DNA of 64,000 nucleotides from an uncultured candidatus Porisulfidus sp. (GCA_963668445.1 OY764335.1:532297-596296); one strand, 5' to 3'. Positions 843 to 49,346 are shown, counted from the first letter of the stretch. Notes: generated by a model from the letters alone, not told the origin. Translations and numbers: made by a program.

Positions 843-891
843 GGGCGAATCTGAGCACCCACAAACAGGAAGACCCCGGGTTCCAAAAGAC

Positions 892-2142: not shown

Positions 2143-2171
2143 ATGGCCCACTAAAGCAAAAGCAGGAGCAC

Positions 2172-4019
2172 ATGATGGGATGGCTTAACCGAAGGAAAAC
2201 GATCCTTGTGGATTCCGATGTCCTCGTCGTCGGCGGCGGCATGGCCGGCTGCGGGGCCACGTACGAATCCAAATACTGGGGACGCGACCTGAAGGTGGTC
2301 TGCGTCGAAAAGGCGAATATCGAGCGCAGCGGCGCAGTCGCCCAAGGCCTGTACGCAATCAACTGCTACATGGGCATGCAGTGGGGCGAGAACCAGCCAG
2401 AGGATCATGTCCGCTATGCGCGCAGCGACCTCATGGGGCTTGTGCGGGAAGATTTGGGCTACGACATCGCCCGGCACGTCGATGCCACGGTGCATAAGTT
2501 TGAAGAATGGGGCCTCCCCATCATGCGGGATCCGGAAACGGGGCGCTACCAGCGCGAGGGCAAATGGCAGATCATGATCCATGGCGAAAGCTACAAGCCG
2601 ATTGTTGCTGAGGCTGCCCGCAAGGCTGCCGACGAGATATACAACCGCATCATGGTGACGCACCTGCTGATGGACGAGCTGAAACCGAACCGCGTGGCCG
2701 GTGCCGTCGGCTTCAATGTCCGCACGGGCGATTTCTATGTGTTCCGGTCCAAGGCCGTAATCGTTTGTGCCGGCGGTGCCTCGCACATATACAAGCCCCG
2801 CTCTGTGGGCGAAGGCATGGGGCGCACGTGGTATGCCCCGTGGAGCAGCGCATCGGCCTATGCGCTCCCGATTCTCGCCGGTGCCAAGATGACGCAAATG
2901 GAGAATCGGATCGTCCTTGCCCGGTTCAAGGACGGCTACGGCCCTGTCGGTGCCTACTTCCTGCACCTCAAGACTTATACGCAGAACGGCTACGGCGAGG
3001 AATACGAATCCAAATGGTATGAGCAGACGAAGGCGCTCGTCGGCGATTACATCGACAAGCATCCGACTCCGACCTGTCTGCGCAACCATGCTTTCCTTGA
3101 AGAAGTGAAAGCGGGCAGAGGCCCCATCCGCATGGTGACCAAAGAGGCTTTCCAGGATCCGCATAAGGAGACCGTGGGATGGGAGAACTTTCTCGGCATG
3201 ACCATCGGCCAAGCGGTCGTTTGGGCGTCGCAGAACATCGACCCCAAGCATACCAACCCGGAACTGACGACTTCCGAGCCCTACGTCATGGGCTCTCATG
3301 CCACCTGCTCGGGAGCTTGGGCAAGCGGCCCTTCGGATTGCGCGCCTTCGGATTATCAGTGGGGCTACAACCGCATGATGACCGTGGAAGGACTATTCGG
3401 CGCAGGGGACACGATCGGCGGCACCGCGCACAAGTTTTCGTCGGGCTCCTACACGGAAGGCCGAATCGCGGCCAAGGCAGCGGTCAATTACGTGAACGAC
3501 ATGAAAAACGAAAAGATTCGAGTCGGCGAAAAACAGTATCAGGATCTAAAGAAGGCCATCTACAAGCCCTTGGAAAATTACGAAGTCGGTCGTAACGAGA
3601 TCGTGGCGGGGACCGTCTCGCCAAGCTACATCTTGCCGATCCACGGCCTGCAACGCCTGGAAAAGATCATGGACGAATATGTCGGTGGCATTAGCACGAA
3701 CTATGTGACCAATGAGCCCTTGCTGACTCGCGGCTTGGAGCTGCTGGACATGCTGAAGGAGGACCTCGACAATATCGGGGCCGAAGACCTTCATCAACTG
3801 CAAAGGGCATGGGAGCTTCAACACCGGTTTCTGGCTTCGCAGTCGGTGGCCCACCATACGCTGTTCCGCAAGGAGACGCGTTGGCCGGGGTACTACTACC
3901 GGGGCGATTTCCCGAAACTCAACGACGAGGACTGGCACTGCTTCACTCTGTCCCGCTATGATCGGAGTTCCGACAGCTGGGAGGTGGAGAAGGCTCCCGT
4001 CCACCACATAATCGACTAA
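2172..4019 (+). CDS. aprA: Adenylylsulfate (APS) reductase alpha subunit, a flavoprotein.
   Basis: MMGWLNRRKTILVDSDVLVVGGGMAGCGATYE has an FAD-binding GxGxxG motif. The protein is about 615 aa with a fumarate-reductase/AprA-like fold and ends ...RWPGYYYRGDFPKLNDEDWHCF. RBS AGGAG lies at 2164-2168. The ORF-track start at 2022 is an upstream extension. Confidence 0.9.
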   Translation: MMGWLNRRKTILVDSDVLVVGGGMAGCGATYESKYWGRDLKVVCVEKANIERSGAVAQGLYAINCYMGMQWGENQPEDHVRYARSDLMGLVREDLGYDIARHVDATVHKFEEWGLPIMRDPETGRYQREGKWQIMIHGESYKPIVAEAARKAADEIYNRIMVTHLLMDELKPNRVAGAVGFNVRTGDFYVFRSKAVIVCAGGASHIYKPRSVGEGMGRTWYAPWSSASAYALPILAGAKMTQMENRIVLARFKDGYGPVGAYFLHLKTYTQNGYGEEYESKWYEQTKALVGDYIDKHPTPTCLRNHAFLEEVKAGRGPIRMVTKEAFQDPHKETVGWENFLGMTIGQAVVWASQNIDPKHTNPELTTSEPYVMGSHATCSGAWASGPSDCAPSDYQWGYNRMMTVEGLFGAGDTIGGTAHKFSSGSYTEGRIAAKAAVNYVNDMKNEKIRVGEKQYQDLKKAIYKPLENYEVGRNEIVAGTVSPSYILPIHGLQRLEKIMDEYVGGISTNYVTNEPLLTRGLELLDMLKEDLDNIGAEDLHQLQRAWELQHRFLASQSVAHHTLFRKETRWPGYYYRGDFPKLNDEDWHCFTLSRYDRSSDSWEVEKAPVHHIID

Positions 4020-4245: not shown

Positions 4246-6591
<2,346 letters not shown>

Positions 6592-21249: not shown

Positions 21250-22092
21250 TCAGGCGTCGCCAGTAGCGATGGGCCGTTCAGGGTTGCGTATCCAAGCACT
21301 CCATGAGCCGACGTAGAGCCGGCCTGGTTCAAGTCCTGCATGTGCCATCGCCAGCAGGTTGTGGCATGCGGTCACGCCGGAGCCGCAAGAGTGGCAGACA
21401 GGCTGGGGATTTGCGGACAGGGCTGCGAAGCGTTCGCGCAAGTCGGCACGCGAACGGAACGTGCCATCCGCATTCAGGTTGCCGCGGAACGGTAGGTTTT
21501 GGGAGTTGGGAATGTGCCCGGCTTTGGCGTCCAGAGGCTCGATGCGCCCCGCGAAGCGGTCAGAGTCGCGGGCATCAACGACTTGGAGCGTCTTTTGCTC
21601 CAGTCCCGCTTCAATGTCTTCGGTCGAGACCCATAGAGCGTCGTTCGGTCTGATCGGATGGCAAGCGCGGGCTGCAGAAGGGCGGTCTTGGGAAAGCGCT
21701 CGCGCTTCCTGCACCCATTGGGGCAGTCCGCCATCCAAGACCGCAACGGCGGCATGGCCGACCCAACGTAACAGCCACCACATGCGTCCGGCAATGGCAC
21801 CGCCCGCATCGTCGTAGACGACGACTTGCGCCCCCGGTGTGATGCCGAATGCTTCGAGCCTTGTCTGGAAAGCCTCGGGATCGGGCAGGGGATGCCGTCC
21901 GCTGGACGCATCAGGAGCGGCTGCCATGTCGGTGTCCAGATGGGCATAGCGTGCGCTTGGGATATGGCCTTCGCGCCACGCGGCTTCTCCGGCGTCCGGG
22001 TGTCCGACATCGAAGCGGCAATCCAGAACTATGGCCGCATTCTGCGCCAGCAAATCCGCCAGTTGCCCGGTTTTGATCAATGTTGTGTACAT
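21250..22092 (-). CDS. sseA: Tandem-rhodanese sulfurtransferase (thiosulfate / 3-mercaptopyruvate sulfurtransferase).
   Basis: Two rhodanese domains. The catalytic Cys is in ...PVCHSCGSGVTACHNLLAMAHAGL. The N-terminus is MYTTLIKTGQLADLL. Confidence 0.8.
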   Translation of the reverse strand: MYTTLIKTGQLADLLAQNAAIVLDCRFDVGHPDAGEAAWREGHIPSARYAHLDTDMAAAPDASSGRHPLPDPEAFQTRLEAFGITPGAQVVVYDDAGGAIAGRMWWLLRWVGHAAVAVLDGGLPQWVQEARALSQDRPSAARACHPIRPNDALWVSTEDIEAGLEQKTLQVVDARDSDRFAGRIEPLDAKAGHIPNSQNLPFRGNLNADGTFRSRADLRERFAALSANPQPVCHSCGSGVTACHNLLAMAHAGLEPGRLYVGSWSAWIRNPERPIATGDA

Positions 22093-29884: not shown

Positions 29885-32800
29885 TCAGAACATCAGTTCG
29901 ATTTTCAGATGGATGCTCAAGCCATTTGCCTCGTTGCTGGCGGCATGTTCGCCGAACACATCCGCGCGCCATTGCGCCATGGCGCCTGTCTCGCGCCCGA
30001 ACCGCACACCCAATCGCATTTTCGAGAGGTCGCTGCTGTGTTCCGCCTTGCCAAACCACTCGATCGGCCGCCTCAGCCACGGCGACCACATGCCGTATCC
30101 GACTTCCACTCCCATGGCTGCGGATTCATTCGGTGCTGATCGATCAGCCAGATCGGCGGCGTTCTCCTCCCACATCGTGGACGAGCTGTCGGTTGGCGCG
30201 CCCCATCGCGGGGACAGCATCAGGGACAGCCCGCGACCGTCCGCGTCTGGATTTTTCTTCAGCGTCACACTCACGCCCCGTTCTTCGTAGTCGCTCTCGG
30301 AATGTGCTGCCAGCCATCGCCCTTGTACATCCAGTGCCCAGCCGTCGACCACACTTTCGAAATACATGCCGCCGGCCAATTCCAGCCCGACTCCTTCGGA
30401 CCCGTTGCCACCATCGTAGCGGGCAAACGCCTGCGCGTACGGATTCGTGAAGTTGCCAGCCTCGTCCTCGATTGTCCGGGAATATTCCATTCCGGCACGG
30501 ACCTGATGCGCATTCGCTGTCAGGTCGTCAATCTCCAGAATCTCGCCATCGGCTTCCAGCTGGACGTATCCGGCATCGGCCATCAGTGCCCAGCGATGGT
30601 CCTTCCGCTCCGATTCCCCGAGTTCTCGGCGCAAGCCCACCGAAGCCATCTGCATCGATAGGTCTCTGTGCTCGGAATCCGCGCTGTCCATGCCGCTACG
30701 CAAGCTCTCCAATTCGATATCCCCCTCGCCTGCGCCCAGCATCATCCAAACCCCTACACCATCTCCCAAGTCCACATGGGCGTAAGGATGCACACTGGTC
30801 AGTTTCATCTCCATCGTGCCCGACCCGTTTAGACCTTGCTCGCCGAAAGAATAATCCGAATGCGCCCGACGATGCGATACCGCAACTCCGGCGATCCATT
30901 GTTTCTGAATGCGGGCATCAACGCCTACGTAGAACGAGCGCATGTCGCTTTCGTAATGGCCATTGCCATTGATTTCACCGGAGCTTTCCGTGTAGTCGCC
31001 CTGACCCCAGACGCTCCATTGCGCATGCGACGCTTCACTGCCCGCATTGAGGGAGAAGTCAAAAGTGCTTTCCAACAACCATTCGGTTGTGCTGATGCGA
31101 GAGCCCTCGTCCGTTACCGAGCCTGCTTTGAACCTTTCGATAACATCTAACGCGGCTGGCTGCGTCAAGGTTCGACGGTCGGATTCCGATGTGTCTGGCT
31201 CCAGTCCGGCCATACGAATCACGTCGTCGGGCGGCTTCGCAAACCTCCAATTTAGCACTTGCTGCGTACTTGCCATCATGCTGCCTGCGATTTGGCTCAA
31301 GGAGGCTTCCAAGACTGCCTTTTCCTCAATGGTATCTGTTTGCACCGCGATGGTAAAGGCGGCGGCGGCACTGTTGCCGTCGGCGTCGGTGGCGGTGTAG
31401 GTGTAGCCGGTGGCGGCCTGGGTGCCGCTGGGGGTGCCGGACAGGGTGCGGGTGGCGGCGTCGAAGCTCAGCCCGGGGGGCAGCGCCGGGGTGCCGCTGG
31501 TGCGCGCCAGCGCGTAGCTGAGCGCGCCGTTGCCGCCGCTGGCCAGCGGCAACGCCAAGTCCGTGATTCTGCGGCCTCGTGCATACACCTGGTCGGCAAT
31601 TGTGTCGTTCAAGGTTGGAGGGCCCAAGGGGGGGCTCTCTATAGATTCCTGCACCATGATGGTGAAGGTGGCGGTGGCGGCGTCGCCGTCGGCGTCGGTG
31701 GCGGTGTAGGTGTAGCCGGTGGCGGCCTGGGTGCCGCTGGGGGTGCCGGACAGGGTGCGGGTGGCGGCGTCGAAGCTCAGCCCGGGGGGCAGCGCCGGGG
31801 TGCCGCTGGTGCGCGCCAGCGCGTAGCTGAGCGCGCCGTTGCCGCCGGTCGCGGCCGGCAGCACCAGATCGGTGATCGGGCGGCCCTCGGAGTAGGCCTG
31901 GTCGGACGGCGCGGTCACGGCGGGCTGGCTGTTGGACTCGACCGCGAGGCTGAAGGTCGCCGAGTCGGTCTCGCCGTCGGCGTCGGTGACCGCGTACTTC
32001 AGGCTGGCGGTGGCGGCGCTGCCCGGCGTGGTGCCGGACAGGGTGCGGGTGGCGGCGGCGAACGACAGCCAGGCGGGCAGCGCGGTGCCGTCTTCCTTGG
32101 TCAGCGCGTAGCTCAGCGGGGCGTTGCCGCCGGTGGCGGCCGGCAGCTGGTGCGAGACGCTGCGCCCGGTGCCGTAGGTGAGGCCGGCCTGGGACGGCAG
32201 GTCCGGGGCGCTGTTCGCGGCCACCGCGATGGTGAAGGTGGCGGTGGCGGCGTCGCCGTCGGCGTCGGTGGCGGTGTAGGTGTAGCCGGTGGCGGCCTGG
32301 GTGCCGCTGGGGGTGCCGGACAGGGTGCGGGTGGCGGCGTCGAAGCTCAGCCCGGGGGGCAGCGCCGGGGTGCCGCTGGTGCGCGCCAGCGCGTAGCTGA
32401 GCGCGCCGTTGCCGCCGGTCGCGGCCGGCAGCACCAGATCGGTGATCGGGCGGCCCTCGGAGTAGGCCTGGTCGGACGGCGCGGTCACGGCGGGCTGGCT
32501 GTTGGACTCGACCGCGAGGCTGAAGGTCGCCGAGTCGGTCTCGCCGTCGGCGTCGGTGACCGCGTACTTCAGGCTGGCGGTGGCGGCGCTGCCCGGCGTG
32601 GTGCCGGACAGGGTGCGGGTGGCGGCGGCGAACGACAGCCAGGCGGGCAGCGCGGTGCCGTCTTCCTTGGTCAGCGCGTAGCTCAGCGGGGCGTTGCCGC
32701 CGGTGGCGGCCGGCAGCTGGTGCGAGACGCTGCGCCCGGTGCCGTAGGTGAGGCCGGCCTGGGACGGCAGGTCCGGGGCGCTGTTCGCGGCCACCGCGAT

Positions 32801-35800
32801 GGTGAAGGTGGCGGTGGCGGCGTCGCCGTCGGCGTCGGTGGCGGTGTAGGTGTAGCCGGTGGCGGCCTGGGTGCCGCTGGGGGTGCCGGACAGGGTGCGG
32901 GTGGCGGCGTCGAAGCTCAGCCCGGGGGGCAGCGCCGGGGTGCCGCTGGTGCGCGCCAGCGCGTAGCTGAGCGCGCCGTTGCCGCCGGTCGCGGCCGGCA
33001 GCACCAGATCGGTGATCGGGCGGCCCTCGGAGTAGGCCTGGTCGGACGGCGCGGTCACGGCGGGCTGGCTGTTGGACTCGACCGCGAGGCTGAAGGTCGC
33101 CGAGTCGGTCTCGCCGTCGGCGTCGGTGACCGCGTACTTCAGGCTGGCGGTGGCGGCGCTGCCCGGCGTGGTGCCGGACAGGGTGCGGGTGGCGGCGGCG
33201 AACGACAGCCAGGCGGGCAGCGCGGTGCCGTCTTCCTTGGTCAGCGCGTAGCTCAGCGGGGCGTTGCCGCCGGTGGCGGCCGGCAGCTGGTGCGAGACGC
33301 TGCGCCCGGTGCCGTAGGTGAGGCCGGCCTGGGACGGCAGGTCCGGGGCGCTGTTCGCGGCCACCGCGATGGTGAAGGTGGCGGTGGCGGCGTCGCCGTC
33401 GGCGTCGGTGGCGGTGTAGGTGTAGCCGGTGGCGGCCTGGGTGCCGCTGGGGGTGCCGGACAGGGTGCGGGTGGCGGCGTCGAAGCTCAGCCCGGGGGGC
33501 AGCGCCGGGGTGCCGCTGGTGCGCGCCAGCGCGTAGCTGAGCGCGCCGTTGCCGCCGGTCGCGGCCGGCAGCACCAGATCGGTGATCGGGCGGCCCTCGG
33601 AGTAGGCCTGGTCGGACGGCGCGGTCACGGCGGGCTGGCTGTTGGACTCGACCGCGAGGCTGAAGGTCGCCGAGTCGGTCTCGCCGTCGGCGTCGGTGAC
33701 CGCGTACTTCAGGCTGGCGGTGGCGGCGCTGCCCGGCGTGGTGCCGGACAGGGTGCGGGTGGCGGCGGCGAACGACAGCCAGGCGGGCAGCGCGGTGCCG
33801 TCTTCCTTGGTCAGCGCGTAGCTCAGCGGGGCGTTGCCGCCGGTGGCGGCCGGCAGCTGGTGCGAGACGCTGCGCCCGGTGCCGTAGGTGAGGCCGGCCT
33901 GGGACGGCAGGTCCGGGGCGCTGTTCGCGGCCACCGCGATGGTGAAGGTGGCGGTGGCGGCGTCGCCGTCGGCGTCGGTGGCGGTGTAGGTGTAGCCGGT
34001 GGCGGCCTGGGTGCCGCTGGGGGTGCCGGACAGGGTGCGGGTGGCGGCGTCGAAGCTCAGCCCGGGGGGCAGCGCCGGGGTGCCGCTGGTGCGCGCCAGC
34101 GCGTAGCTGAGCGCGCCGTTGCCGCCGGTCGCGGCCGGCAGCACCAGATCGGTGATCGGGCGGCCCTCGGAGTAGGCCTGGTCGGACGGCGCGGTCACGG
34201 CGGGCTGGCTGTTGGACTCGACCGCGAGGCTGAAGGTCGCCGAGTCGGTCTCGCCGTCGGCGTCGGTGACCGCGTACTTCAGGCTGGCGGTGGCGGCGCT
34301 GCCCGGCGTGGTGCCGGACAGGGTGCGGGTGGCGGCGGCGAACGACAGCCAGGCGGGCAGCGCGGTGCCGTCTTCCTTGGTCAGCGCGTAGCTCAGCGGG
34401 GCGTTGCCGCCGGTGGCGGCCGGCAGCTGGTGCGAGACGCTGCGCCCGGTGCCGTAGGTGAGGCCGGCCTGGGACGGCAGGTCCGGGGCGCTGTTCGCGG
34501 CCACCGCGATGGTGAAGGTGGCGGTGGCGGCGTCGCCGTCGGCGTCGGTGGCGGTGTAGGTGTAGCCGGTGGCGGCCTGGGTGCCGCTGGGGGTGCCGGA
34601 CAGGGTGCGGGTGGCGGCGTCGAAGCTCAGCCCGGGGGGCAGCGCCGGGGTGCCGCTGGTGCGCGCCAGCGCGTAGCTGAGCGCGCCGTTGCCGCCGGTC
34701 GCGGCCGGCAGCACCAGATCGGTGATCGGGCGGCCCTCGGAGTAGGCCTGGTCGGACGGCGCGGTCACGGCGGGCTGGCTGTTGGACTCGACCGCGAGGC
34801 TGAAGGTCGCCGAGTCGGTCTCGCCGTCGGCGTCGGTGACCGCGTACTTCAGGCTGGCGGTGGCGGCGCTGCCCGGCGTGGTGCCGGACAGGGTGCGGGT
34901 GGCGGCGGCGAACGACAGCCAGGCGGGCAGCGCGGTGCCGTCTTCCTTGGTCAGCGCGTAGCTCAGCGGGGCGTTGCCGCCGGTGGCGGCCGGCAGCTGG
35001 TGCGAGACGCTGCGCCCGGTGCCGTAGGTGAGGCCGGCCTGGGACGGCAGGTCCGGGGCGCTGTTCGCGGCCACCGCGATGGTGAAGGTGGCGGTGGCGG
35101 CGTCGCCGTCGGCGTCGGTGGCGGTGTAGGTGTAGCCGGTGGCGGCCTGGGTGCCGCTGGGGGTGCCGGACAGGGTGCGGGTGGCGGCGTCGAAGCTCAG
35201 CCCGGGGGGCAGCGCCGGGGTGCCGCTGGTGCGCGCCAGCGCGTAGCTGAGCGCGCCGTTGCCGCCGGTCGCGGCCGGCAGCACCAGATCGGTGATCGGG
35301 CGGCCCTCGGAGTAGGCCTGGTCGGACGGCGCGGTCACGGCGGGCTGGCTGTTGGACTCGACCGCGAGGCTGAAGGTCGCCGAGTCGGTCTCGCCGTCGG
35401 CGTCGGTGACCGCGTACTTCAGGCTGGCGGTGGCGGCGCTGCCCGGCGTGGTGCCGGACAGGGTGCGGGTGGCGGCGGCGAACGACAGCCAGGCGGGCAG
35501 CGCGGTGCCGTCTTCCTTGGTCAGCGCGTAGCTCAGCGGGGCGTTGCCGCCGGTGGCGGCCGGCAGCTGGTGCGAGACGCTGCGCCCGGTGCCGTAGGTG
35601 AGGCCGGCCTGGGACGGCAGGTCCGGGGCGCTGTTCGCGGCCACCGCGATGGTGAAGGTGGCGGTGGCGGCGTCGCCGTCGGCGTCGGTGGCGGTGTAGG
35701 TGTAGCCGGTGGCGGCCTGGGTGCCGCTGGGGGTGCCGGACAGGGTGCGGGTGGCGGCGTCGAAGCTCAGCCCGGGGGGCAGCGCCGGGGTGCCGCTGGT

Positions 35801-38800
35801 GCGCGCCAGCGCGTAGCTGAGCGCGCCGTTGCCGCCGGTCGCGGCCGGCAGCACCAGATCGGTGATCGGGCGGCCCTCGGAGTAGGCCTGGTCGGACGGC
35901 GCGGTCACGGCGGGCTGGCTGTTGGACTCGACCGCGAGGCTGAAGGTCGCCGAGTCGGTCTCGCCGTCGGCGTCGGTGACCGCGTACTTCAGGCTGGCGG
36001 TGGCGGCGCTGCCCGGCGTGGTGCCGGACAGGGTGCGGGTGGCGGCGGCGAACGACAGCCAGGCGGGCAGCGCGGTGCCGTCTTCCTTGGTCAGCGCGTA
36101 GCTCAGCGGGGCGTTGCCGCCGGTGGCGGCCGGCAGCTGGTGCGAGACGCTGCGCCCGGTGCCGTAGGTGAGGCCGGCCTGGGACGGCAGGTCCGGGGCG
36201 CTGTTCGCGGCCACCGCGATGGTGAAGGTGGCGGTGGCGGCGTCGCCGTCGGCGTCGGTGGCGGTGTAGGTGTAGCCGGTGGCGGCCTGGGTGCCGCTGG
36301 GGGTGCCGGACAGGGTGCGGGTGGCGGCGTCGAAGCTCAGCCCGGGGGGCAGCGCCGGGGTGCCGCTGGTGCGCGCCAGCGCGTAGCTGAGCGCGCCGTT
36401 GCCGCCGGTCGCGGCCGGCAGCACCAGATCGGTGATCGGGCGGCCCTCGGAGTAGGCCTGGTCGGACGGCGCGGTCACGGCGGGCTGGCTGTTGGACTCG
36501 ACCGCGAGGCTGAAGGTCGCCGAGTCGGTCTCGCCGTCGGCGTCGGTGACCGCGTACTTCAGGCTGGCGGTGGCGGCGCTGCCCGGCGTGGTGCCGGACA
36601 GGGTGCGGGTGGCGGCGGCGAACGACAGCCAGGCGGGCAGCGCGGTGCCGTCTTCCTTGGTCAGCGCGTAGCTCAGCGGGGCGTTGCCGCCGGTGGCGGC
36701 CGGCAGCTGGTGCGAGACGCTGCGCCCGGTGCCGTAGGTGAGGCCGGCCTGGGACGGCAGGTCCGGGGCGCTGTTCGCGGCCACCGCGATGGTGAAGGTG
36801 GCGGTGGCGGCGTCGCCGTCGGCGTCGGTGGCGGTGTAGGTGTAGCCGGTGGCGGCCTGGGTGCCGCTGGGGGTGCCGGACAGGGTGCGGGTGGCGGCGT
36901 CGAAGCTCAGCCCGGGGGGCAGCGCCGGGGTGCCGCTGGTGCGCGCCAGCGCGTAGCTGAGCGCGCCGTTGCCGCCGGTCGCGGCCGGCAGCACCAGATC
37001 GGTGATCGGGCGGCCCTCGGAGTAGGCCTGGTCGGACGGCGCGGTCACGGCGGGCTGGCTGTTGGACTCGACCGCGAGGCTGAAGGTCGCCGAGTCGGTC
37101 TCGCCGTCGGCGTCGGTGACCGCGTACTTCAGGCTGGCGGTGGCGGCGCTGCCCGGCGTGGTGCCGGACAGGGTGCGGGTGGCGGCGGCGAACGACAGCC
37201 AGGCGGGCAGCGCGGTGCCGTCTTCCTTGGTCAGCGCGTAGCTCAGCGGGGCGTTGCCGCCGGTGGCGGCCGGCAGCTGGTGCGAGACGCTGCGCCCGGT
37301 GCCGTAGGTGAGGCCGGCCTGGGACGGCAGGTCCGGGGCGCTGTTCGCGGCCACCGCGATGGTGAAGGTGGCGGTGGCGGCGTCGCCGTCGGCGTCGGTG
37401 GCGGTGTAGGTGTAGCCGGTGGCGGCCTGGGTGCCGCTGGGGGTGCCGGACAGGGTGCGGGTGGCGGCGTCGAAGCTCAGCCCGGGGGGCAGCGCCGGGG
37501 TGCCGCTGGTGCGCGCCAGCGCGTAGCTGAGCGCGCCGTTGCCGCCGGTCGCGGCCGGCAGCACCAGATCGGTGATCGGGCGGCCCTCGGAGTAGGCCTG
37601 GTCGGACGGCGCGGTCACGGCGGGCTGGCTGTTGGACTCGACCGCGAGGCTGAAGGTCGCCGAGTCGGTCTCGCCGTCGGCGTCGGTGACCGCGTACTTC
37701 AGGCTGGCGGTGGCGGCGCTGCCCGGCGTGGTGCCGGACAGGGTGCGGGTGGCGGCGGCGAACGACAGCCAGGCGGGCAGCGCGGTGCCGTCTTCCTTGG
37801 TCAGCGCGTAGCTCAGCGGGGCGTTGCCGCCGGTGGCGGCCGGCAGCTGGTGCGAGACGCTGCGCCCGGTGCCGTAGGTGAGGCCGGCCTGGGACGGCAG
37901 GTCCGGGGCGCTGTTCGCGGCCACCGCGATGGTGAAGGTGGCGGTGGCGGCGTCGCCGTCGGCGTCGGTGGCGGTGTAGGTGTAGCCGGTGGCGGCCTGG
38001 GTGCCGCTGGGGGTGCCGGACAGGGTGCGGGTGGCGGCGTCGAAGCTCAGCCCGGGGGGCAGCGCCGGGGTGCCGCTGGTGCGCGCCAGCGCGTAGCTGA
38101 GCGCGCCGTTGCCGCCGGTCGCGGCCGGCAGCACCAGATCGGTGATCGGGCGGCCCTCGGAGTAGGCCTGGTCGGACGGCGCGGTCACGGCGGGCTGGCT
38201 GTTGGACTCGACCGCGAGGCTGAAGGTCGCCGAGTCGGTCTCGCCGTCGGCGTCGGTGACCGCGTACTTCAGGCTGGCGGTGGCGGCGCTGCCCGGCGTG
38301 GTGCCGGACAGGGTGCGGGTGGCGGCGGCGAACGACAGCCAGGCGGGCAGCGCGGTGCCGTCTTCCTTGGTCAGCGCGTAGCTCAGCGGGGCGTTGCCGC
38401 CGGTGGCGGCCGGCAGCTGGTGCGAGACGCTGCGCCCGGTGCCGTAGGTGAGGCCGGCCTGGGACGGCAGGTCCGGGGCGCTGTTCGCGGCCACCGCGAT
38501 GGTGAAGGTGGCGGTGGCGGCGTCGCCGTCGGCGTCGGTGGCGGTGTAGGTGTAGCCGGTGGCGGCCTGGGTGCCGCTGGGGGTGCCGGACAGGGTGCGG
38601 GTGGCGGCGTCGAAGCTCAGCCCGGGGGGCAGCGCCGGGGTGCCGCTGGTGCGCGCCAGCGCGTAGCTGAGCGCGCCGTTGCCGCCGGTCGCGGCCGGCA
38701 GCACCAGATCGGTGATCGGGCGGCCCTCGGAGTAGGCCTGGTCGGACGGCGCGGTCACGGCGGGCTGGCTGTTGGACTCGACCGCGAGGCTGAAGGTCGC

Positions 38801-41800
38801 CGAGTCGGTCTCGCCGTCGGCGTCGGTGACCGCGTACTTCAGGCTGGCGGTGGCGGCGCTGCCCGGCGTGGTGCCGGACAGGGTGCGGGTGGCGGCGGCG
38901 AACGACAGCCAGGCGGGCAGCGCGGTGCCGTCTTCCTTGGTCAGCGCGTAGCTCAGCGGGGCGTTGCCGCCGGTGGCGGCCGGCAGCTGGTGCGAGACGC
39001 TGCGCCCGGTGCCGTAGGTGAGGCCGGCCTGGGACGGCAGGTCCGGGGCGCTGTTCGCGGCCACCGCGATGGTGAAGGTGGCGGTGGCGGCGTCGCCGTC
39101 GGCGTCGGTGGCGGTGTAGGTGTAGCCGGTGGCGGCCTGGGTGCCGCTGGGGGTGCCGGACAGGGTGCGGGTGGCGGCGTCGAAGCTCAGCCCGGGGGGC
39201 AGCGCCGGGGTGCCGCTGGTGCGCGCCAGCGCGTAGCTGAGCGCGCCGTTGCCGCCGGTCGCGGCCGGCAGCACCAGATCGGTGATCGGGCGGCCCTCGG
39301 AGTAGGCCTGGTCGGACGGCGCGGTCACGGCGGGCTGGCTGTTGGACTCGACCGCGAGGCTGAAGGTCGCCGAGTCGGTCTCGCCGTCGGCGTCGGTGAC
39401 CGCGTACTTCAGGCTGGCGGTGGCGGCGCTGCCCGGCGTGGTGCCGGACAGGGTGCGGGTGGCGGCGGCGAACGACAGCCAGGCGGGCAGCGCGGTGCCG
39501 TCTTCCTTGGTCAGCGCGTAGCTCAGCGGGGCGTTGCCGCCGGTGGCGGCCGGCAGCTGGTGCGAGACGCTGCGCCCGGTGCCGTAGGTGAGGCCGGCCT
39601 GGGACGGCAGGTCCGGGGCGCTGTTCGCGGCCACCGCGATGGTGAAGGTGGCGGTGGCGGCGTCGCCGTCGGCGTCGGTGGCGGTGTAGGTGTAGCCGGT
39701 GGCGGCCTGGGTGCCGCTGGGGGTGCCGGACAGGGTGCGGGTGGCGGCGTCGAAGCTCAGCCCGGGGGGCAGCGCCGGGGTGCCGCTGGTGCGCGCCAGC
39801 GCGTAGCTGAGCGCGCCGTTGCCGCCGGTCGCGGCCGGCAGCACCAGATCGGTGATCGGGCGGCCCTCGGAGTAGGCCTGGTCGGACGGCGCGGTCACGG
39901 CGGGCTGGCTGTTGGACTCGACCGCGAGGCTGAAGGTCGCCGAGTCGGTCTCGCCGTCGGCGTCGGTGACCGCGTACTTCAGGCTGGCGGTGGCGGCGCT
40001 GCCCGGCGTGGTGCCGGACAGGGTGCGGGTGGCGGCGGCGAACGACAGCCAGGCGGGCAGCGCGGTGCCGTCTTCCTTGGTCAGCGCGTAGCTCAGCGGG
40101 GCGTTGCCGCCGGTGGCGGCCGGCAGCTGGTGCGAGACGCTGCGCCCGGTGCCGTAGGTGAGGCCGGCCTGGGACGGCAGGTCCGGGGCGCTGTTCGCGG
40201 CCACCGCGATGGTGAAGGTGGCGGTGGCGGCGTCGCCGTCGGCGTCGGTGGCGGTGTAGGTGTAGCCGGTGGCGGCCTGGGTGCCGCTGGGGGTGCCGGA
40301 CAGGGTGCGGGTGGCGGCGTCGAAGCTCAGCCCGGGGGGCAGCGCCGGGGTGCCGCTGGTGCGCGCCAGCGCGTAGCTGAGCGCGCCGTTGCCGCCGGTC
40401 GCGGCCGGCAGCACCAGATCGGTGATCGGGCGGCCCTCGGAGTAGGCCTGGTCGGACGGCGCGGTCACGGCGGGCTGGCTGTTGGACTCGACCGCGAGGC
40501 TGAAGGTCGCCGAGTCGGTCTCGCCGTCGGCGTCGGTGACCGCGTACTTCAGGCTGGCGGTGGCGGCGCTGCCCGGCGTGGTGCCGGACAGGGTGCGGGT
40601 GGCGGCGGCGAACGACAGCCAGGCGGGCAGCGCGGTGCCGTCTTCCTTGGTCAGCGCGTAGCTCAGCGGGGCGTTGCCGCCGGTGGCGGCCGGCAGCTGG
40701 TGCGAGACGCTGCGCCCGGTGCCGTAGGTGAGGCCGGCCTGGGACGGCAGGTCCGGGGCGCTGTTCGCGGCCACCGCGATGGTGAAGGTGGCGGTGGCGG
40801 CGTCGCCGTCGGCGTCGGTGGCGGTGTAGGTGTAGCCGGTGGCGGCCTGGGTGCCGCTGGGGGTGCCGGACAGGGTGCGGGTGGCGGCGTCGAAGCTCAG
40901 CCCGGGGGGCAGCGCCGGGGTGCCGCTGGTGCGCGCCAGCGCGTAGCTGAGCGCGCCGTTGCCGCCGGTCGCGGCCGGCAGCACCAGATCGGTGATCGGG
41001 CGGCCCTCGGAGTAGGCCTGGTCGGACGGCGCGGTCACGGCGGGCTGGCTGTTGGACTCGACCGCGAGGCTGAAGGTCGCCGAGTCGGTCTCGCCGTCGG
41101 CGTCGGTGACCGCGTACTTCAGGCTGGCGGTGGCGGCGCTGCCCGGCGTGGTGCCGGACAGGGTGCGGGTGGCGGCGGCGAACGACAGCCAGGCGGGCAG
41201 CGCGGTGCCGTCTTCCTTGGTCAGCGCGTAGCTCAGCGGGGCGTTGCCGCCGGTGGCGGCCGGCAGCTGGTGCGAGACGCTGCGCCCGGTGCCGTAGGTG
41301 AGGCCGGCCTGGGACGGCAGGTCCGGGGTTAGCCTCAGTGGCGTTGCTTTTGCTGTATCTGAAGGGGGGCTGCCACCGGTCGAATTCACCGCACGAATCT
41401 GAAAGGAGTATTCCACCCCGGTGGTCAAGTTGCCAACCGTGTGGCTTGTGGTATTTGCTCCGCTTTTGTTGATATTTCCCCAGATCTCGAATACGCTATC
41501 CGTTTCGGTCTTTTTCCGTATTTGGTATGTCGTAATGTTCGTGTCGGACGGATCCGTCCATTCGAGCAAGACCTGCTGATCGCCTGCAGTGGCCGCGAAG
41601 CCGCTCGGTTTCGCCGGCCTCGGCCTCGGTGTCACCGACACCTCGTCCGATTCTGTGCCATTGCCCACTGGGTTGACCGCTCTGATCTTGAACGTGTATT
41701 GGGTTCCGCTGGTCAATCCGGTGACCGTGTGGCTTGTGGTGGTCGCGCTGCTGGAGCCGATATCCGTCCACCCGCCATAATTGTTCGAGCCTTCTTTTTG

Positions 41801-42895
41801 CCGGTACTGGTATTTCGAAATGCTTGCGTTGGACGGATTGGTCCATCCCAAGAACACCCGAGTTCCATCAAGTGCTTGTGCGGTGAAATTGCTTGGTTTG
41901 CCCGGTGCCGTCAGATTCGCCATTACTGTAGATGAAGAACCAGCACCCGCTGGATTCACTGCACGGAGTTGAAACGTATATTCCGTCTCATTGGTCAATC
42001 CGGTGATCGTGTGGCTTGTGGTGGTTGCGCTGCTGGAGCCGATATCCGTCCATACGCCATAATTGTTTGAGCCTTCTTTTTGCCGGTACTGGTATTTCGA
42101 AATGGTTGTGTCCGACGGATCCGTCCATTTCAATGCCACGCTCTGATTGCCTACTGTCGCGGCAAGGTTGGTCGGGGCCGCTGGCGGAGGCGTTGCCGTT
42201 GCTGTTGCTTCATCCGATTCCAGCCCATCGCCGACTGAGTTGACCGCTCTGATCTTGAACGTGTATTGGGTTCCGTTGGTCAATCCGGTGACCGTGTGGG
42301 TCGTGGTGGTCGCGCTGCTGGAGCCGATATCCGTCCATCCGCCGTAATTGTTCGAGCCTTCCTTTTGCCGGTACTGGTATTTCGAAATGGTTGTGTCCGA
42401 CGGATCCGTCCATTTCAAGTTCATGCTTTTGTCAGCCGGCGTCACGGTGAAGTCGGTTGGTTTGTCCGGCGATGCCGACATGGAAACCGAGTTGGAGCCT
42501 AGGGAGAGTCCGCAGGATGATGATGTATGTTTAAGCCAATTGCTGTCTTTTGTGAACGATGACAGGTTCATGGTGTTGGTGCCGATCTTGACTTTCACGT
42601 CAGCGGTTTTCAGGTTGTTCGGATCCTTATTGAACTGGATCCAGCATTGGCCAGAAGATTGGAAAAAGTCTTTTATTTCGTATGTGGTCCCCCGGAAATC
42701 AAAATCGTCATCGCTTAAACTCCCATATGTGATGATGAGTGTGCTGTATCCTAGAGAATTGCCGAAACCCTGTGCTGCATTTAACGTGGCACTCCAGAAG
42801 AGTCCTGAATTGGCCGCGTATGTCGGTCGCGCTTCTCCTGTCAGTAGCACTGCAAGCAGCAATAAGAGATGTACTGCCTTGGGTTCCTTGCACAT
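29885..42895 (-). CDS. Giant (about 4336 aa) secreted repeat adhesin. Order: signal peptide, FN3-like modules, 17 tandem copies of a 190-aa double He_PIG/'putative Ig' unit, then a C-terminal autotransporter-like beta-barrel.
   Basis: Signal peptide MCKEPKAVHLLLLLAVLLTGEARPTYA/AN. Repeated motif LPxGLSFDAATRTLSGTP. The C-terminal 400 aa have alternating hydrophobic beta-strand patterning (AQWSVWGQGDY...), are Gly/aromatic-rich and end ...HLKIELMF. The start was moved from the ORF-track 43090 to the ATG at 42895, ahead of the signal peptide. Confidence 0.85.
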   Translation of the reverse strand: MCKEPKAVHLLLLLAVLLTGEARPTYAANSGLFWSATLNAAQGFGNSLGYSTLIITYGSLSDDDFDFRGTTYEIKDFFQSSGQCWIQFNKDPNNLKTADVKVKIGTNTMNLSSFTKDSNWLKHTSSSCGLSLGSNSVSMSASPDKPTDFTVTPADKSMNLKWTDPSDTTISKYQYRQKEGSNNYGGWTDIGSSSATTTTHTVTGLTNGTQYTFKIRAVNSVGDGLESDEATATATPPPAAPTNLAATVGNQSVALKWTDPSDTTISKYQYRQKEGSNNYGVWTDIGSSSATTTSHTITGLTNETEYTFQLRAVNPAGAGSSSTVMANLTAPGKPSNFTAQALDGTRVFLGWTNPSNASISKYQYRQKEGSNNYGGWTDIGSSSATTTSHTVTGLTSGTQYTFKIRAVNPVGNGTESDEVSVTPRPRPAKPSGFAATAGDQQVLLEWTDPSDTNITTYQIRKKTETDSVFEIWGNINKSGANTTSHTVGNLTTGVEYSFQIRAVNSTGGSPPSDTAKATPLRLTPDLPSQAGLTYGTGRSVSHQLPAATGGNAPLSYALTKEDGTALPAWLSFAAATRTLSGTTPGSAATASLKYAVTDADGETDSATFSLAVESNSQPAVTAPSDQAYSEGRPITDLVLPAATGGNGALSYALARTSGTPALPPGLSFDAATRTLSGTPSGTQAATGYTYTATDADGDAATATFTIAVAANSAPDLPSQAGLTYGTGRSVSHQLPAATGGNAPLSYALTKEDGTALPAWLSFAAATRTLSGTTPGSAATASLKYAVTDADGETDSATFSLAVESNSQPAVTAPSDQAYSEGRPITDLVLPAATGGNGALSYALARTSGTPALPPGLSFDAATRTLSGTPSGTQAATGYTYTATDADGDAATATFTIAVAANSAPDLPSQAGLTYGTGRSVSHQLPAATGGNAPLSYALTKEDGTALPAWLSFAAATRTLSGTTPGSAATASLKYAVTDADGETDSATFSLAVESNSQPAVTAPSDQAYSEGRPITDLVLPAATGGNGALSYALARTSGTPALPPGLSFDAATRTLSGTPSGTQAATGYTYTATDADGDAATATFTIAVAANSAPDLPSQAGLTYGTGRSVSHQLPAATGGNAPLSYALTKEDGTALPAWLSFAAATRTLSGTTPGSAATASLKYAVTDADGETDSATFSLAVESNSQPAVTAPSDQAYSEGRPITDLVLPAATGGNGALSYALARTSGTPALPPGLSFDAATRTLSGTPSGTQAATGYTYTATDADGDAATATFTIAVAANSAPDLPSQAGLTYGTGRSVSHQLPAATGGNAPLSYALTKEDGTALPAWLSFAAATRTLSGTTPGSAATASLKYAVTDADGETDSATFSLAVESNSQPAVTAPSDQAYSEGRPITDLVLPAATGGNGALSYALARTSGTPALPPGLSFDAATRTLSGTPSGTQAATGYTYTATDADGDAATATFTIAVAANSAPDLPSQAGLTYGTGRSVSHQLPAATGGNAPLSYALTKEDGTALPAWLSFAAATRTLSGTTPGSAATASLKYAVTDADGETDSATFSLAVESNSQPAVTAPSDQAYSEGRPITDLVLPAATGGNGALSYALARTSGTPALPPGLSFDAATRTLSGTPSGTQAATGYTYTATDADGDAATATFTIAVAANSAPDLPSQAGLTYGTGRSVSHQLPAATGGNAPLSYALTKEDGTALPAWLSFAAATRTLSGTTPGSAATASLKYAVTDADGETDSATFSLAVESNSQPAVTAPSDQAYSEGRPITDLVLPAATGGNGALSYALARTSGTPALPPGLSFDAATRTLSGTPSGTQAATGYTYTATDADGDAATATFTIAVAANSAPDLPSQAGLTYGTGRSVSHQLPAATGGNAPLSYALTKEDGTALPAWLSFAAATRTLSGTTPGSAATASLKYAVTDADGETDSATFSLAVESNSQPAVTAPSDQAYSEGRPITDLVLPAATGGNGALSYALARTSGTPALPPGLSFDAATRTLSGTPSGTQAATGYTYTATDADGDAATATFTIAVAANSAPDLPSQAGLTYGTGRSVSHQLPAATGGNAPLSYALTKEDGTALPAWLSFAAATRTLSGTTPGSAATASLKYAVTDADGETDSATFSLAVESNSQPAVTAPSDQAYSEGRPITDLVLPAATGGNGALSYALARTSGTPALPPGLSFDAATRTLSGTPSGTQAATGYTYTATDADGDAATATFTIAVAANSAPDLPSQAGLTYGTGRSVSHQLPAATGGNAPLSYALTKEDGTALPAWLSFAAATRTLSGTTPGSAATASLKYAVTDADGETDSATFSLAVESNSQPAVTAPSDQAYSEGRPITDLVLPAATGGNGALSYALARTSGTPALPPGLSFDAATRTLSGTPSGTQAATGYTYTATDADGDAATATFTIAVAANSAPDLPSQAGLTYGTGRSVSHQLPAATGGNAPLSYALTKEDGTALPAWLSFAAATRTLSGTTPGSAATASLKYAVTDADGETDSATFSLAVESNSQPAVTAPSDQAYSEGRPITDLVLPAATGGNGALSYALARTSGTPALPPGLSFDAATRTLSGTPSGTQAATGYTYTATDADGDAATATFTIAVAANSAPDLPSQAGLTYGTGRSVSHQLPAATGGNAPLSYALTKEDGTALPAWLSFAAATRTLSGTTPGSAATASLKYAVTDADGETDSATFSLAVESNSQPAVTAPSDQAYSEGRPITDLVLPAATGGNGALSYALARTSGTPALPPGLSFDAATRTLSGTPSGTQAATGYTYTATDADGDAATATFTIAVAANSAPDLPSQAGLTYGTGRSVSHQLPAATGGNAPLSYALTKEDGTALPAWLSFAAATRTLSGTTPGSAATASLKYAVTDADGETDSATFSLAVESNSQPAVTAPSDQAYSEGRPITDLVLPAATGGNGALSYALARTSGTPALPPGLSFDAATRTLSGTPSGTQAATGYTYTATDADGDAATATFTIAVAANSAPDLPSQAGLTYGTGRSVSHQLPAATGGNAPLSYALTKEDGTALPAWLSFAAATRTLSGTTPGSAATASLKYAVTDADGETDSATFSLAVESNSQPAVTAPSDQAYSEGRPITDLVLPAATGGNGALSYALARTSGTPALPPGLSFDAATRTLSGTPSGTQAATGYTYTATDADGDAATATFTIAVAANSAPDLPSQAGLTYGTGRSVSHQLPAATGGNAPLSYALTKEDGTALPAWLSFAAATRTLSGTTPGSAATASLKYAVTDADGETDSATFSLAVESNSQPAVTAPSDQAYSEGRPITDLVLPAATGGNGALSYALARTSGTPALPPGLSFDAATRTLSGTPSGTQAATGYTYTATDADGDAATATFTIAVAANSAPDLPSQAGLTYGTGRSVSHQLPAATGGNAPLSYALTKEDGTALPAWLSFAAATRTLSGTTPGSAATASLKYAVTDADGETDSATFSLAVESNSQPAVTAPSDQAYSEGRPITDLVLPAATGGNGALSYALARTSGTPALPPGLSFDAATRTLSGTPSGTQAATGYTYTATDADGDAATATFTIAVAANSAPDLPSQAGLTYGTGRSVSHQLPAATGGNAPLSYALTKEDGTALPAWLSFAAATRTLSGTTPGSAATASLKYAVTDADGETDSATFSLAVESNSQPAVTAPSDQAYSEGRPITDLVLPAATGGNGALSYALARTSGTPALPPGLSFDAATRTLSGTPSGTQAATGYTYTATDADGDAATATFTIMVQESIESPPLGPPTLNDTIADQVYARGRRITDLALPLASGGNGALSYALARTSGTPALPPGLSFDAATRTLSGTPSGTQAATGYTYTATDADGNSAAAAFTIAVQTDTIEEKAVLEASLSQIAGSMMASTQQVLNWRFAKPPDDVIRMAGLEPDTSESDRRTLTQPAALDVIERFKAGSVTDEGSRISTTEWLLESTFDFSLNAGSEASHAQWSVWGQGDYTESSGEINGNGHYESDMRSFYVGVDARIQKQWIAGVAVSHRRAHSDYSFGEQGLNGSGTMEMKLTSVHPYAHVDLGDGVGVWMMLGAGEGDIELESLRSGMDSADSEHRDLSMQMASVGLRRELGESERKDHRWALMADAGYVQLEADGEILEIDDLTANAHQVRAGMEYSRTIEDEAGNFTNPYAQAFARYDGGNGSEGVGLELAGGMYFESVVDGWALDVQGRWLAAHSESDYEERGVSVTLKKNPDADGRGLSLMLSPRWGAPTDSSSTMWEENAADLADRSAPNESAAMGVEVGYGMWSPWLRRPIEWFGKAEHSSDLSKMRLGVRFGRETGAMAQWRADVFGEHAASNEANGLSIHLKIELMF
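31640..41335. repeat. Seventeen nucleotide-identical tandem repeats of 570 bp inside the giant adhesin gene. A divergent partial copy lies at each end.
   Basis: Sequence blocks 570 nt apart are character-for-character identical; for example the lines at 32221 and 33361 continue identically across the whole array. Each unit encodes DLPSQAGLTYGTGRSV...TFTIAVAANSAP. Confidence 0.9.
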
Positions 42896-42936
42896 GTCCT
42901 GCAACCATTTCTCAATGGCCTTACGACAGGGCCGAT

Positions 42937-42960
42937 GGGGGGGGGGGGGGGGGGGGGGGG
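42937..42960. repeat. Homopolymeric G/C tract, 24 nt, 41 nt upstream of the giant adhesin start codon. Putative phase-variation switch.
   Basis: 24 consecutive G on the plus strand, counted directly. It lies between the adhesin ATG (42895) and the AT-rich upstream region. Confidence 0.8.
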
Positions 42961-43949
42961 CTGTAATGTTAGGAATGCGCCGCCTGCTGCCATTCGCTGG
43001 CCGGGCCGGATCAATGCTGGCCAAAGCCTTCCGGAAATCCATGCGCGCTAAGCCTTCCCGTGAAAAGCGGAGAATTTGCTCTGGCACCAATTGCGCGGGT
43101 TATAATCCATAGAGATAGCATCTCCACTATGTTTGAATTCTTGTTGTGGTTAATGTGGGTTTGTTCGTTACTTTCTGTTATGTATTTATTAGTTACATCA
43201 CATTTTTGCATGCATGTTTAGGTATCTTATAGCAGATTCCCACAATTTGTCAACAACTGCAAGGCAAATGTCAAACCAAAGCCGGAACGACTATGGCGAG
43301 AAAACTAAGACTTCCCCGAAGGTCCAAAGTGTCAGAAGACTCGGATTCGAAGCGTCAAGTCGGTGTTGAGTTTCAAGGACTGGAGACGGATTTGGAGACT
43401 TAAGGCCGCAGGATTCGACTTGTATCCTTCCTGCCATGATTACGTGCGGATGGTCATAATCAATCTATGGATGACTGCATGAGCATGCTTGATCGGACGC
43501 ACGAAACCGTGCATGGCATACATCGGAGCGTATGCCCACAAGGACGGCATCGCCATCGCCCGGGCGCTGTCGGTCGCAATGGGTGGCATCGCCCGTCATT
43601 CCATGAGTCTTTGCCGCGACGTTCACGATACGGGAGGCTTTGTCGAATGCTGCAGTCGAAGTGTCGCGGCCGGTCTGGGGAACCCTTGATCATGTTCCAG
43701 AGTGCCGGAAAATTCCTAGTAGCAAGACGAAAGCAGCTCGCGACGAACGTGTGATCTTGCAGCAGCCAATCCGCACATAGCAACTTGATCAATCATCGTC
43801 ATTAGCAGTGGCACCCTGACTTGGTGCAAACCTCCGCATTCTCCACTACAAGACATGGTATCATGAAATGCTGCATCGCAGAGCTTTCGCCCGACATCGG
43901 CGGAGGTTACGAGCCGGTCACAACATAGCAGCACAATTATTCTCCAACG

Positions 43950-48776: not shown

Positions 48777-49346
48777 TTACGCCTTTTTAGCGGTTTTCCG
48801 CTTGGTGTATTTGCGCTTGGCGACCTTGCGTTTAGCCGTCTTGCGCTTGGCGGTTTTCCGCTTGGTGTATTTGCGCTTGGCGACCTTGCGTTTAGCCGTC
48901 TTGCGCTTGGCGGTTTTCCGCTTGGTGTATTTGCGCTTGGCGACCTTGCGTTTAGCCGTCTTGCGCTTGGCGGTTTTCCGCTTGGTGTATTTGCGCTTGG
49001 CGACCTTGCGTTTAGCCGTCTTGCGCTTGGCGGTTTTCCGCTTGGTGTATTTGCGCTTGGCGACCTTGCGTTTAGCCGTCTTGCGCTTGGCGGTTTTCCG
49101 CTTGGCGACTTTGCGTTTAGCCGTCTTGCGCTTGGCGGTTTTCCGCTTGGTGTATTTGCGCTTGGCGACTTTGCGTTTAGCCGTCTTGCGCTTGGTGACT
49201 TTCCTCTTGGCCGTCTTTCTCTTGGCGACTTTGCGCTTGGGCGTAGTTTTTTTCTTTGCTACGCGACGTTTGGTCGCGGATTTCGCGGCGCTGGCCTTTT
49301 TCTTGACGCTACGGCGCTTTTTCTTGGTGGTGCTTTTGACAGCCAT
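48777..49346 (-). CDS. Histone H1-like lysine/alanine-rich nucleoid protein (AlgP / BpH1-like).
   Basis: MAVKSTTKKKRRSVKKKASAAKS... followed by KRKTAKRKVAKRKYT repeats. An AGGGAGA RBS precedes the ATG. Confidence 0.75.
   Translation of the reverse strand: MAVKSTTKKKRRSVKKKASAAKSATKRRVAKKKTTPKRKVAKRKTAKRKVTKRKTAKRKVAKRKYTKRKTAKRKTAKRKVAKRKTAKRKTAKRKVAKRKYTKRKTAKRKTAKRKVAKRKYTKRKTAKRKTAKRKVAKRKYTKRKTAKRKTAKRKVAKRKYTKRKTAKRKTAKRKVAKRKYTKRKTAKKA
48790..49200. repeat. Perfect 60-nt tandem repeat array (about 5 exact copies plus shortened variants) inside the H1-like gene.
   Basis: The sequence lines at 48841, 48901, 48961 and 49021 are identical. A variant unit with a 15-nt deletion begins at 49081. 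Confidence 0.9.

Follow-up and report, generated by a model that had tools for sequence, protein, structure and literature searches.

The stretch of DNA analysed here, referred to as the window, comprises 64,000 nucleotides (nt) from an uncultured candidatus Porisulfidus sp. (GCA_963668445.1, OY764335.1:532297-596296). On its minus strand, at 29885..43042, lies a giant gene whose product counts 4,385 amino acids (aa) from the ATG at 43042 to the stop codon at 29885..29887, according to the list of open reading frames (ORFs) and the translation. The open frame itself spans 29885..43090 (4,401 codons), is intact and contains a whole array of 570-bp tandem repeats. The same 4,385-aa product can be found in a public protein library (P0273), on a single 1,757,089-bp contig held by NCBI and ENA. 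The array very likely codes for the stalk of a type Va autotransporter, the units of which are homogenised and changed in number by homologous recombination.

Self-comparison of the window at a lag of 570 nt is perfect over 31658-40758, which places the array at 31658..41328 on the minus strand (9,671 bp, 16.97 units). All full units are identical at 570 of 570 positions, with zero mismatches, and chance is no issue for a perfect self-match of 9.1 kb. A preliminary description of this DNA had reported 17 perfect 570-bp copies at 31640..41335, bounds that agree with the present ones to within about 20 bp. Its statement of a diverged first and last unit does not hold: the array is exact at both edges, abutting directly the fibronectin type III (FN3) domains on one side, and the diverged piece is a separate half-unit, B' (31331..31657), at the promoter-distal end of the array. 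The unit has a G+C content of 76.5% and is made of two 285-bp half-units that are about 71% alike; this is why Tandem Repeats Finder (TRF; periods up to 500 bp) assigns the region a period of 288 bp, with 33.4 copies at 72%. Each unit encodes 190 aa, namely a He_PIG domain A followed by a He_PIG domain B, and its G+C content at third codon positions (GC3) is 0.989. An ORF of 3,357 codons on the plus strand (31259..41332), antisense to the array, was considered as a gene and rejected as the shadow of a GC3-saturated gene; it constitutes an annotation trap.

From its N-terminus, the protein harbors a putative Sec-type signal peptide (42812..42895, minus strand; MCKEPKAVHLLLLLAVLLTGEARPTYA|A, judged by eye from the translation), directly before which stands an alternative ATG at 42895. 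A predicted sigma-70-like promoter lies upstream on the same strand (43224..43253; TTGACA-18-TAAGAT, 10/12 matches, within an AT-rich upstream region), as obtained from a consensus scan only. The signal peptide is followed by a distal tip domain of about 110 aa (42476..42811, minus strand) with a LWSATLTVG...YGSL..F motif, for which a Pfam scan gave no match but which is common to the N-termini of the related FN3 proteins P0205, P0208, P0200, and P0215. Four FN3 domains come next (41327..42475, minus strand; Pfam fn3, E=1e-50, four stretches), encoded by 285-bp repeats about 78% alike with a GC3 of 0.64. These FN3 domains form an older 285-bp tandem repeat of their own, reported by TRF at 41657..42419 with 2.7 copies and 78% matches, and their GC3 is below the genome average, which makes them a contrast to the He_PIG array within one gene. 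In the array, Pfam He_PIG (PF05345) matches two stretches per 190-aa unit (E=1.2e-25; 90.2 bits against a gathering score of 24). Between array and barrel lie a linker and B', a single diverged He_PIG domain (31331..31657, minus strand; Pfam He_PIG E=1.8e-12, and alignment to B), then a predicted long alpha-helix (31238..31333, minus strand; residues 109-140 of the AlphaFold model, 32 residues, high confidence), and finally a C-terminal beta-barrel of the autotransporter translocator type (29888..31066, minus strand; Pfam PF03797 and Foldseek), with which the protein ends in ...IELMF.

Structural models agree with this domain content. One unit is modelled by AlphaFold with a mean predicted local distance difference test (pLDDT) score of 96 as two immunoglobulin (Ig)/cadherin-like beta-sandwiches. 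Among solved structures, this model best matches the cadherin-like modules of the staphylococcal adhesin SraP (25% identity), together with cadherins and dystroglycan, while tandem cadherin and titin fragments are also matched by the two-domain model; SraP is the only solved relative of the unit by sequence profile (E=2.9e-26). For the last 590 residues (pLDDT 73.5), the model shows the B' sandwich, the 32-residue helix and a large barrel, and its top 16 Foldseek matches are all classical autotransporter beta domains, with a target-normalised TM-score of up to 0.73 (EspP, Hbp, BrkA, AaaA, EstA, AIDA-I, and NalP among the named ones). The barrel region of about 390 aa is predicted in the AlphaFold model to have more than 12 strands, and two stretches of it are of low confidence. 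Pfam PF03797 is assigned to it with E=4e-7 and 30.5 bits for a cut-off of 26, and no sequence similarity to solved translocators is detectable. In the translation, the order of the parts is signal peptide, passenger and barrel, as in type Va, and the final residue is aromatic (F). On the basis of this order, the domain content and the C-terminal barrel fold, the protein is a type Va autotransporter, whose passenger consists of 39 Ig-like domains and the tip domain. Two other classes were considered and set aside. An inverse autotransporter (type Ve, as intimin and invasin) is ruled out by a barrel that is C-terminal and not N-terminal. A giant RTX adhesin exported by a type I secretion system (T1SS; BapA, LapA or MpIBP type) is likewise disfavored, the C-terminus being a barrel and the NCBIfam models falling far below their cut-offs in the segments scanned (adhes_GNV_Cterm, 19 bits against 180; T1SS_rpt_143, 17 against 66), in scans that included no search aimed at RTX repeats, a T1SS signal or an N-terminal retention module. 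The large adhesin-like surface protein proposed in the preliminary description is thus borne out by the Pfam domains and by the unit and C-terminal models, and binding would be its probable function.

A single close relative of the locus was found in the database searched, the contig ctg626295l of ENA assembly ERZ21830300, hereafter L001, which comes from an independent metagenome assembly. It is syntenic with the window, gshA adjoining the barrel, and outside the He_PIG domains it differs by 5 mismatches in 2,537 bp (99.8% identical), a 917-bp stretch of gshA being the same in both. Its array consists of 573-bp units, at least 19.55 of them before it runs off the contig end. The 18 full units fall into six variants, set apart by a single G/A site, a deletion of 3 bp and a small number of 1-bp insertions, and units differ among themselves by 0-1 substitution. 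Every one of them, in contrast, differs from the unit of the window by 31 substitutions and one 3-bp indel, which amounts to 5.4% where the flank has 0.2% (Fisher p=1e-18), a divergence about 28-fold faster than that of the flank. At the flank rate, each lineage should have gathered about 9.5 substitutions over 9.67 kb, where the window shows 0 (P=7e-5). Since the units of one array resemble each other far more closely than they resemble those of the orthologous array in a near-identical strain, this uniformity within and difference between arrays carries, as read from the sequences, the signature of concerted evolution, of which the two strains give an unusually clean view for a bacterial gene. 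Along the L001 array, the G/A variants are interspersed (GAGGAAGAAAGAGGGGAA) and do not form blocks. At 1236..12959 of L001, 1-bp insertions, of which one unit has four, a second unit two and another a single one, divide the array into three ORFs; they represent either low-coverage consensus errors or a decaying gene.

Footprints of sequence transfer can be found in both strains. In the window, a 163-bp patch of B' (31376..31538, minus strand) is 100% identical to domain B of the array and has a GC3 of 1.0, whereas on both sides of it B' is only 65-75% identical to domain B, with a GC3 of 0.58-0.72; this patch is a gene-conversion tract. In L001, where the last array unit differs from the other units, B' shares a 127-nt exact run with the B domain of that last unit, against 36 nt with the canonical B. 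Furthermore, 22 of the 31 unit substitutions, together with the 3-bp indel, fall within 82 bp of domain A (31942..32023 in the window), and in L001 a stretch of 32 nt in this divergent segment matches domain B of the L001 unit exactly. The patches linking B' to the array in the two strains are conversion footprints. Taken with the divergence of unit and flank and with the absence of any substitution in the window array (P=7e-5), they support the homogenisation or recent expansion invoked in the preliminary description, and its suggestion that the length varies between strains is supported by the one available comparison (at least 19.55 units in L001, which is incomplete at its contig end, against 16.97).

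The following mechanism is proposed. Recombination enzymes of the host would act on the 570-bp repeats, and homologous recombination between these, by unequal crossing-over and gene conversion, would homogenise the units much faster than point mutations accrue. The same process would add or remove units, whereby the length of the protein would vary among close relatives, and new unit variants, such as the patches exchanged between A and B or between B' and the array edge, would either spread through the whole array or be lost. In the product, 17 units of two He_PIG domains together with B' give 35 He_PIG domains, and these would form with the four FN3 domains a single-chain rod, probably about 160-175 nm long, which would hold the small N-terminal tip domain off the outer membrane while the C-terminal barrel anchors it. 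Changes in the length of such a rod may be of selective value.

An assembly or polishing artefact, in which the true copy number differs and/or slightly diverged units were made identical by the consensus, had been noted from the start as the alternative, and it is now considered very unlikely. Tandem arrays are a classic failure case, where ambiguous read mapping lets polishing erase rare variants, and the related contig L001 itself ends within its array. On the other hand, the array lies inside a 1.76-Mb contig, which implies long reads for which 9.7 kb is spannable, the reading frame is unbroken over 13 kb, and the exact patch in B' lies outside the array and could not be produced by collapse. 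The independent assembly, moreover, retains the G/A polymorphism and indels between units, so that such pipelines do not simply flatten variation. Because this assembly shows the same architecture and yet keeps unit polymorphisms, the array is unlikely to be an invention of the assembler and is to be regarded as real biology. The artefact proposed earlier is therefore countered as far as the existence of a long near-identical array is concerned, which L001 corroborates independently, while the exact count of 17 and the absolute perfection stay assembly-based.

Several points weigh against a stalk of a type Va autotransporter that is maintained by recombination. The copy number of 17 and the absolute identity rest on one assembly, and the sole related locus, L001, ends inside its array and has its frame broken by 1-bp indels. 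The barrel scores only just above the PF03797 threshold, and at about 390 aa its region exceeds in size the 12-strand translocators of solved structure. Finally, homogenisation alone leaves unexplained both the GC3 of 98.9% and the roughly 28-fold excess of unit over flank divergence.

As regards composition, 188 of the 190 codons of the unit end in G or C (C 132, G 56), while elsewhere in the gene GC3 is 0.56-0.72, in ten neighbouring genes 0.72-0.81 and in the genome about 76%. The ACC:ACG ratio is 28:1 in the array, 43:56 in the housekeeping genes and 10:16 in aprA, and a high-GC member of the family is also unlike the array. A side effect of the 70% C at third positions (132 C against 56 G) is a plus-strand GC skew of +0.22, where most of the remaining window has about +0.1.

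This composition could be that of a foreign cassette, i.e., a pair of A and B He_PIG domains brought from a donor of very high GC3 into an autotransporter with a FN3 stalk and amplified in one recent burst, which is conceivable although somewhat unlikely. Perfect identity and odd composition would in that case reflect youth and foreign origin and not long-term homogenisation, a proposition to which the same limited credence is given. The GC3 of 0.989, out of line with gene and neighbours, and codon choices unlike those of the host (ACC:ACG 28:1 against 43:56) would both be accounted for, family members do occur in genomes with a GC3 of 0.90-0.95 (L082), and P0274, the nearest relative by its barrel (45% identity), lacks an array of this kind, its stalk being composed of diverged FN3 domains. 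However, an array of another unit sequence exists in a strain whose flank is 99.8% identical, which implies at least one complete turnover after any import. B', native-like outside its patch, has about 60% aa identity to B (two short stretches, compared by eye) where external homologues reach at most 54%, and no donor was found. Nor do the codon preferences of the array fit the high-GC relative any better than the host (log-likelihood -114.5 against -107.5), a comparison that gives no decision between the two.

GC-biased gene conversion (gBGC) among the units, a bias that would have driven synonymous sites to saturation and would push AT-to-GC amino-acid changes through the array, starts from the same 188 of 190 codons and is judged unlikely. 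In bacteria, a process resembling gBGC has been proposed (PMC4450053). GC3 in B' is 1.0 over the converted patch and 0.58-0.72 over the unconverted parts, and the FN3 repeats of the same gene, which at about 78% are presumably not converting, have a GC3 of 0.64. Between the strains, the window has G or C where L001 has A or T at 17 sites and the reverse at 4 (p=0.007), 13 of the sites lying at first codon positions. Without an outgroup, this 17:4 asymmetry fits ordinary AT-biased mutation in the L001 lineage equally well. In addition, gBGC predicts G and C equally, so that third positions with 70% C represent a strand asymmetry that it alone would not produce. The family member L084, whose array units are 91-94% identical, displays no GC3 excess (0.82-0.86 against 0.79-0.84 in the rest of its gene), and a rise in GC3 as a general trait of such arrays was thus not seen there. 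If the bias were nevertheless at work, gBGC among 17 units would have pushed GC3 to 99% in a genome with about 76%, and it would mimic positive selection in the stalk through AT-to-GC replacements (dN/dS 3.5, as detailed below). That the array is a natural reporter of bacterial gBGC, in a gene variable at the three levels of poly-C on/off state or dosage, unit number and unit sequence, is an improbable proposition of about the same order. As a candidate test bed for biased gene conversion in bacteria, the saturated GC3 is of interest.

Translational selection amplified by copy number, in which a synonymous change spread over 17 units would have a 17-fold effect and drive the array towards optimal codons, seems most improbable. 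The codon set of the array is narrow (ACC, GGC, CTG, CGC, and GCC), and these are optimal codons in many GC-rich proteobacteria. However, aprA, for which a sulfur oxidiser should show high expression, has a GC3 of 0.75 and an ACC:ACG ratio of 10:16, so that the genome shows no sign of such an optimal set, and the rest of the same gene has a GC3 under the genome average. Selection of this kind is therefore unsupported as the origin of the GC3, aprA lacking the codon preferences of the array.

The ratio of nonsynonymous to synonymous divergence (dN/dS) calls for caution. Between L001 and the window, unit differences amount to 28.8 nonsynonymous against 3.2 synonymous (dN/dS 3.5; p=0.011), against a dN/dS of 0.51 for B', linker and barrel. 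This value was rejected as proof of diversifying selection, because the differences are clustered and not independent, the A/B patch is templated and synonymous sites are nearly saturated with G or C.

The protein can be compared with the Periscope Proteins, bacterial surface proteins whose near-identical tandem domain repeats vary in number via intragenic recombination, as described in the relevant passages of two papers (PMC8201768; PMC9704523). The examples given there include SasG, Rib/alpha C, Sgo_0707 SHIRT, Esp, CdrA, inverse autotransporters, and ShdA (PMC8201768; PMC9704523). The present protein is, in all respects open to testing, an extreme example. Its tandem repeats are of very high DNA identity and individually foldable (100% over 16.97 units; pLDDT 96), and their number differs between close strains in the one comparison made. 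Like the Periscope Proteins, it is a single-chain surface protein whose stalk consists of tandem folded domains with near-identical coding repeats, varies in repeat number among close relatives and bears a putative functional domain at its distal end. In the parts of the review considered, the Gram-negative figure is of inverse autotransporters and the text adds CdrA and the type Va adhesin ShdA, with PATR repeats of beta-helical fold, whereas the anchor here is a classical type Va barrel. A classical type Va anchor combined with a two-domain He_PIG super-repeat is not named in the passages of PMC8201768 and PMC9704523 retrieved by keyword look-ups, and GC3 saturation is not a feature described in those passages. 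Further differences are the He_PIG super-repeat stalk itself and the host, an environmental or symbiotic uncultured gammaproteobacterium and not a pathogen. With this locus, the "Periscope" principle of variable length extends to a classical autotransporter whose Ig-like stalk is built of He_PIG domains.

Among other known systems, the cadherin-like (CDHL) modules of SraP from S. aureus (PDB 4M00-4M03) are also tandem Ig/cadherin-like modules in an adhesin, but number two in a Gram-positive serine-rich repeat protein, against 35 in an autotransporter passenger here. Giant RTX adhesins secreted by the type I pathway, such as Marinomonas MpIBP, LapA, and SiiE, reach hundreds of kDa and possess a long extender chain of Ig-like domains; in MpIBP, the extender repeats are identical at the DNA level, and the extender projects distal binding domains. 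The resemblance lies in size and extender chain, while the logic of secretion and anchoring differs, the C-terminus here being a beta-barrel. Classical type Va autotransporters (EspP, Hbp, BrkA, AIDA-I, NalP, and EstA) share the signal peptide, passenger, helix and C-terminal barrel of the same fold. Their passenger, however, is a beta-helix instead of a string of Ig-like domains, and the barrel segment is longer here.

The gene carries a further potentially variable element at its 5' end. A 24-nt poly-C tract (42937..42960, minus strand; poly-G on the plus strand) stands in frame as a Pro run in the ORF starting at 43042 and lies 41 nt upstream of the ATG at 42895, a second start codon by which the tract could be bypassed. 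Only one other homopolymer longer than 7 nt can be found in the 64 kb, a 23-nt poly-C tract at 399..421 (minus strand), and both stand at the 5' ends of genes for surface proteins with a signal peptide and FN3 domains. The 399..421 tract follows directly the only in-frame ATG of a second such gene, which runs off the left edge of the window (M-Pro8, 43 codons, signal peptide, FN3), and since this ATG precedes the tract, the latter must be translated. Both tracts are candidate phase-variation switches, or alternatively candidate poly-proline (EF-P-dependent) leaders, slipped-strand phase variation being the obvious candidate reading of such tracts; those found here are longer than in classical contingency loci. 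In Gardnerella, nanH3 carries a poly-C of 8-14 C in a homopolymer-controlled surface protein (bioRxiv 10.1101/2020.09.16.300947). As in nanH3, the tract stands in the 5' part of a gene for a secreted protein and its length could set the reading frame; the differences are its length (24 nt here, 23-41 nt in related cases, against 8-14 C) and the downstream start codon that could bypass it. Such tracts were also seen in two other genomes, at genes for giant surface proteins. On the 3.29-Mb circular contig of L083, a C26 tract (3019..3044) stands five codons downstream of the ATG for an FN3 protein and a G13 tract (5003..5015) at the overlap of two FN3 ORFs. On the 2.56-Mb circular contig of L084, a C15 tract (2962..2976) precedes a 6,155-aa autotransporter by 25 nt and a C41 tract (21854..21894) 77-117 nt inside a 17,162-aa ORF. 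In 1.40 Mb of unrelated loci, no tract of at least 12 nt was found.

Relatives of the protein were sought in several collections. A scan of the GTDB representative genomes with the C-terminal 471 aa gave no relative, by which the genome is not itself among those species representatives, a scan of JGI metagenomes with a 33-mer common to the units of both strains gave nothing, and exact-protein look-ups in a gene-position index (ilvA, FAH-family protein, ferredoxin-NADP reductase, aprB, gshA and the giant protein) gave none and thus neither further strains nor another copy of the 5' end of the gene. In the protein-homologue searches, the matches listed were at most about 1,033 aa long for queries of about 500-600 aa and at most 333 aa for the 190-aa unit, and a 1,614-aa fragment of L001, which over its C-terminal 589 aa matches the query at 98% identity, was absent among them. 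Giant relatives came to light only in a search of protein representatives. As giant orthologues fell outside the former matches, the apparent lack of close homologues there is not meaningful. Perfect self-identity extends over 3,033 residues in the protein, and the next longest run is 399 residues among 42 proteins, namely those of at least 1,500 aa among the best 150 of 6,043 barrel relatives (E<=0.001). For annotation, the locus serves as a warning: short-read assemblies will collapse such an array, it is overlapped by an antisense shadow ORF, and its relatives stay hidden where a protein database leaves out very long entries.

With regard to the host, gshA is at best 47-49% identical to GTDB species representatives, the matches being gammaproteobacterial metagenome-assembled genomes (MAGs), and for this reason the host can be placed only at the level of the class, as an uncultured gammaproteobacterium to which no genome in GTDB is close. 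The FN3 part is about 50% like FN3 proteins of sponge-symbiont MAGs, which is a hint at the habitat and not a proof. No RNA family of Rfam was found in the window. The neighbouring genes are the housekeeping genes pfp, ampD, msrB, gshA, and ilvA, together with aprBA. The latter, encoding adenylylsulfate reductase (aprB and aprA, 1708..4019, plus strand), come after a gene for a membrane protein (841..1671) and suggest a sulfur-oxidising or sulfite-handling metabolism of the host. Another repeat-bearing gene of the window, at 48777..49346 on the minus strand, encodes a Lys/Ala-rich histone-H1-like protein of 189 aa with 60-bp tandem repeats (6.3 copies, 94% matches) of the motif KRKTAKRKVAKRKYT.

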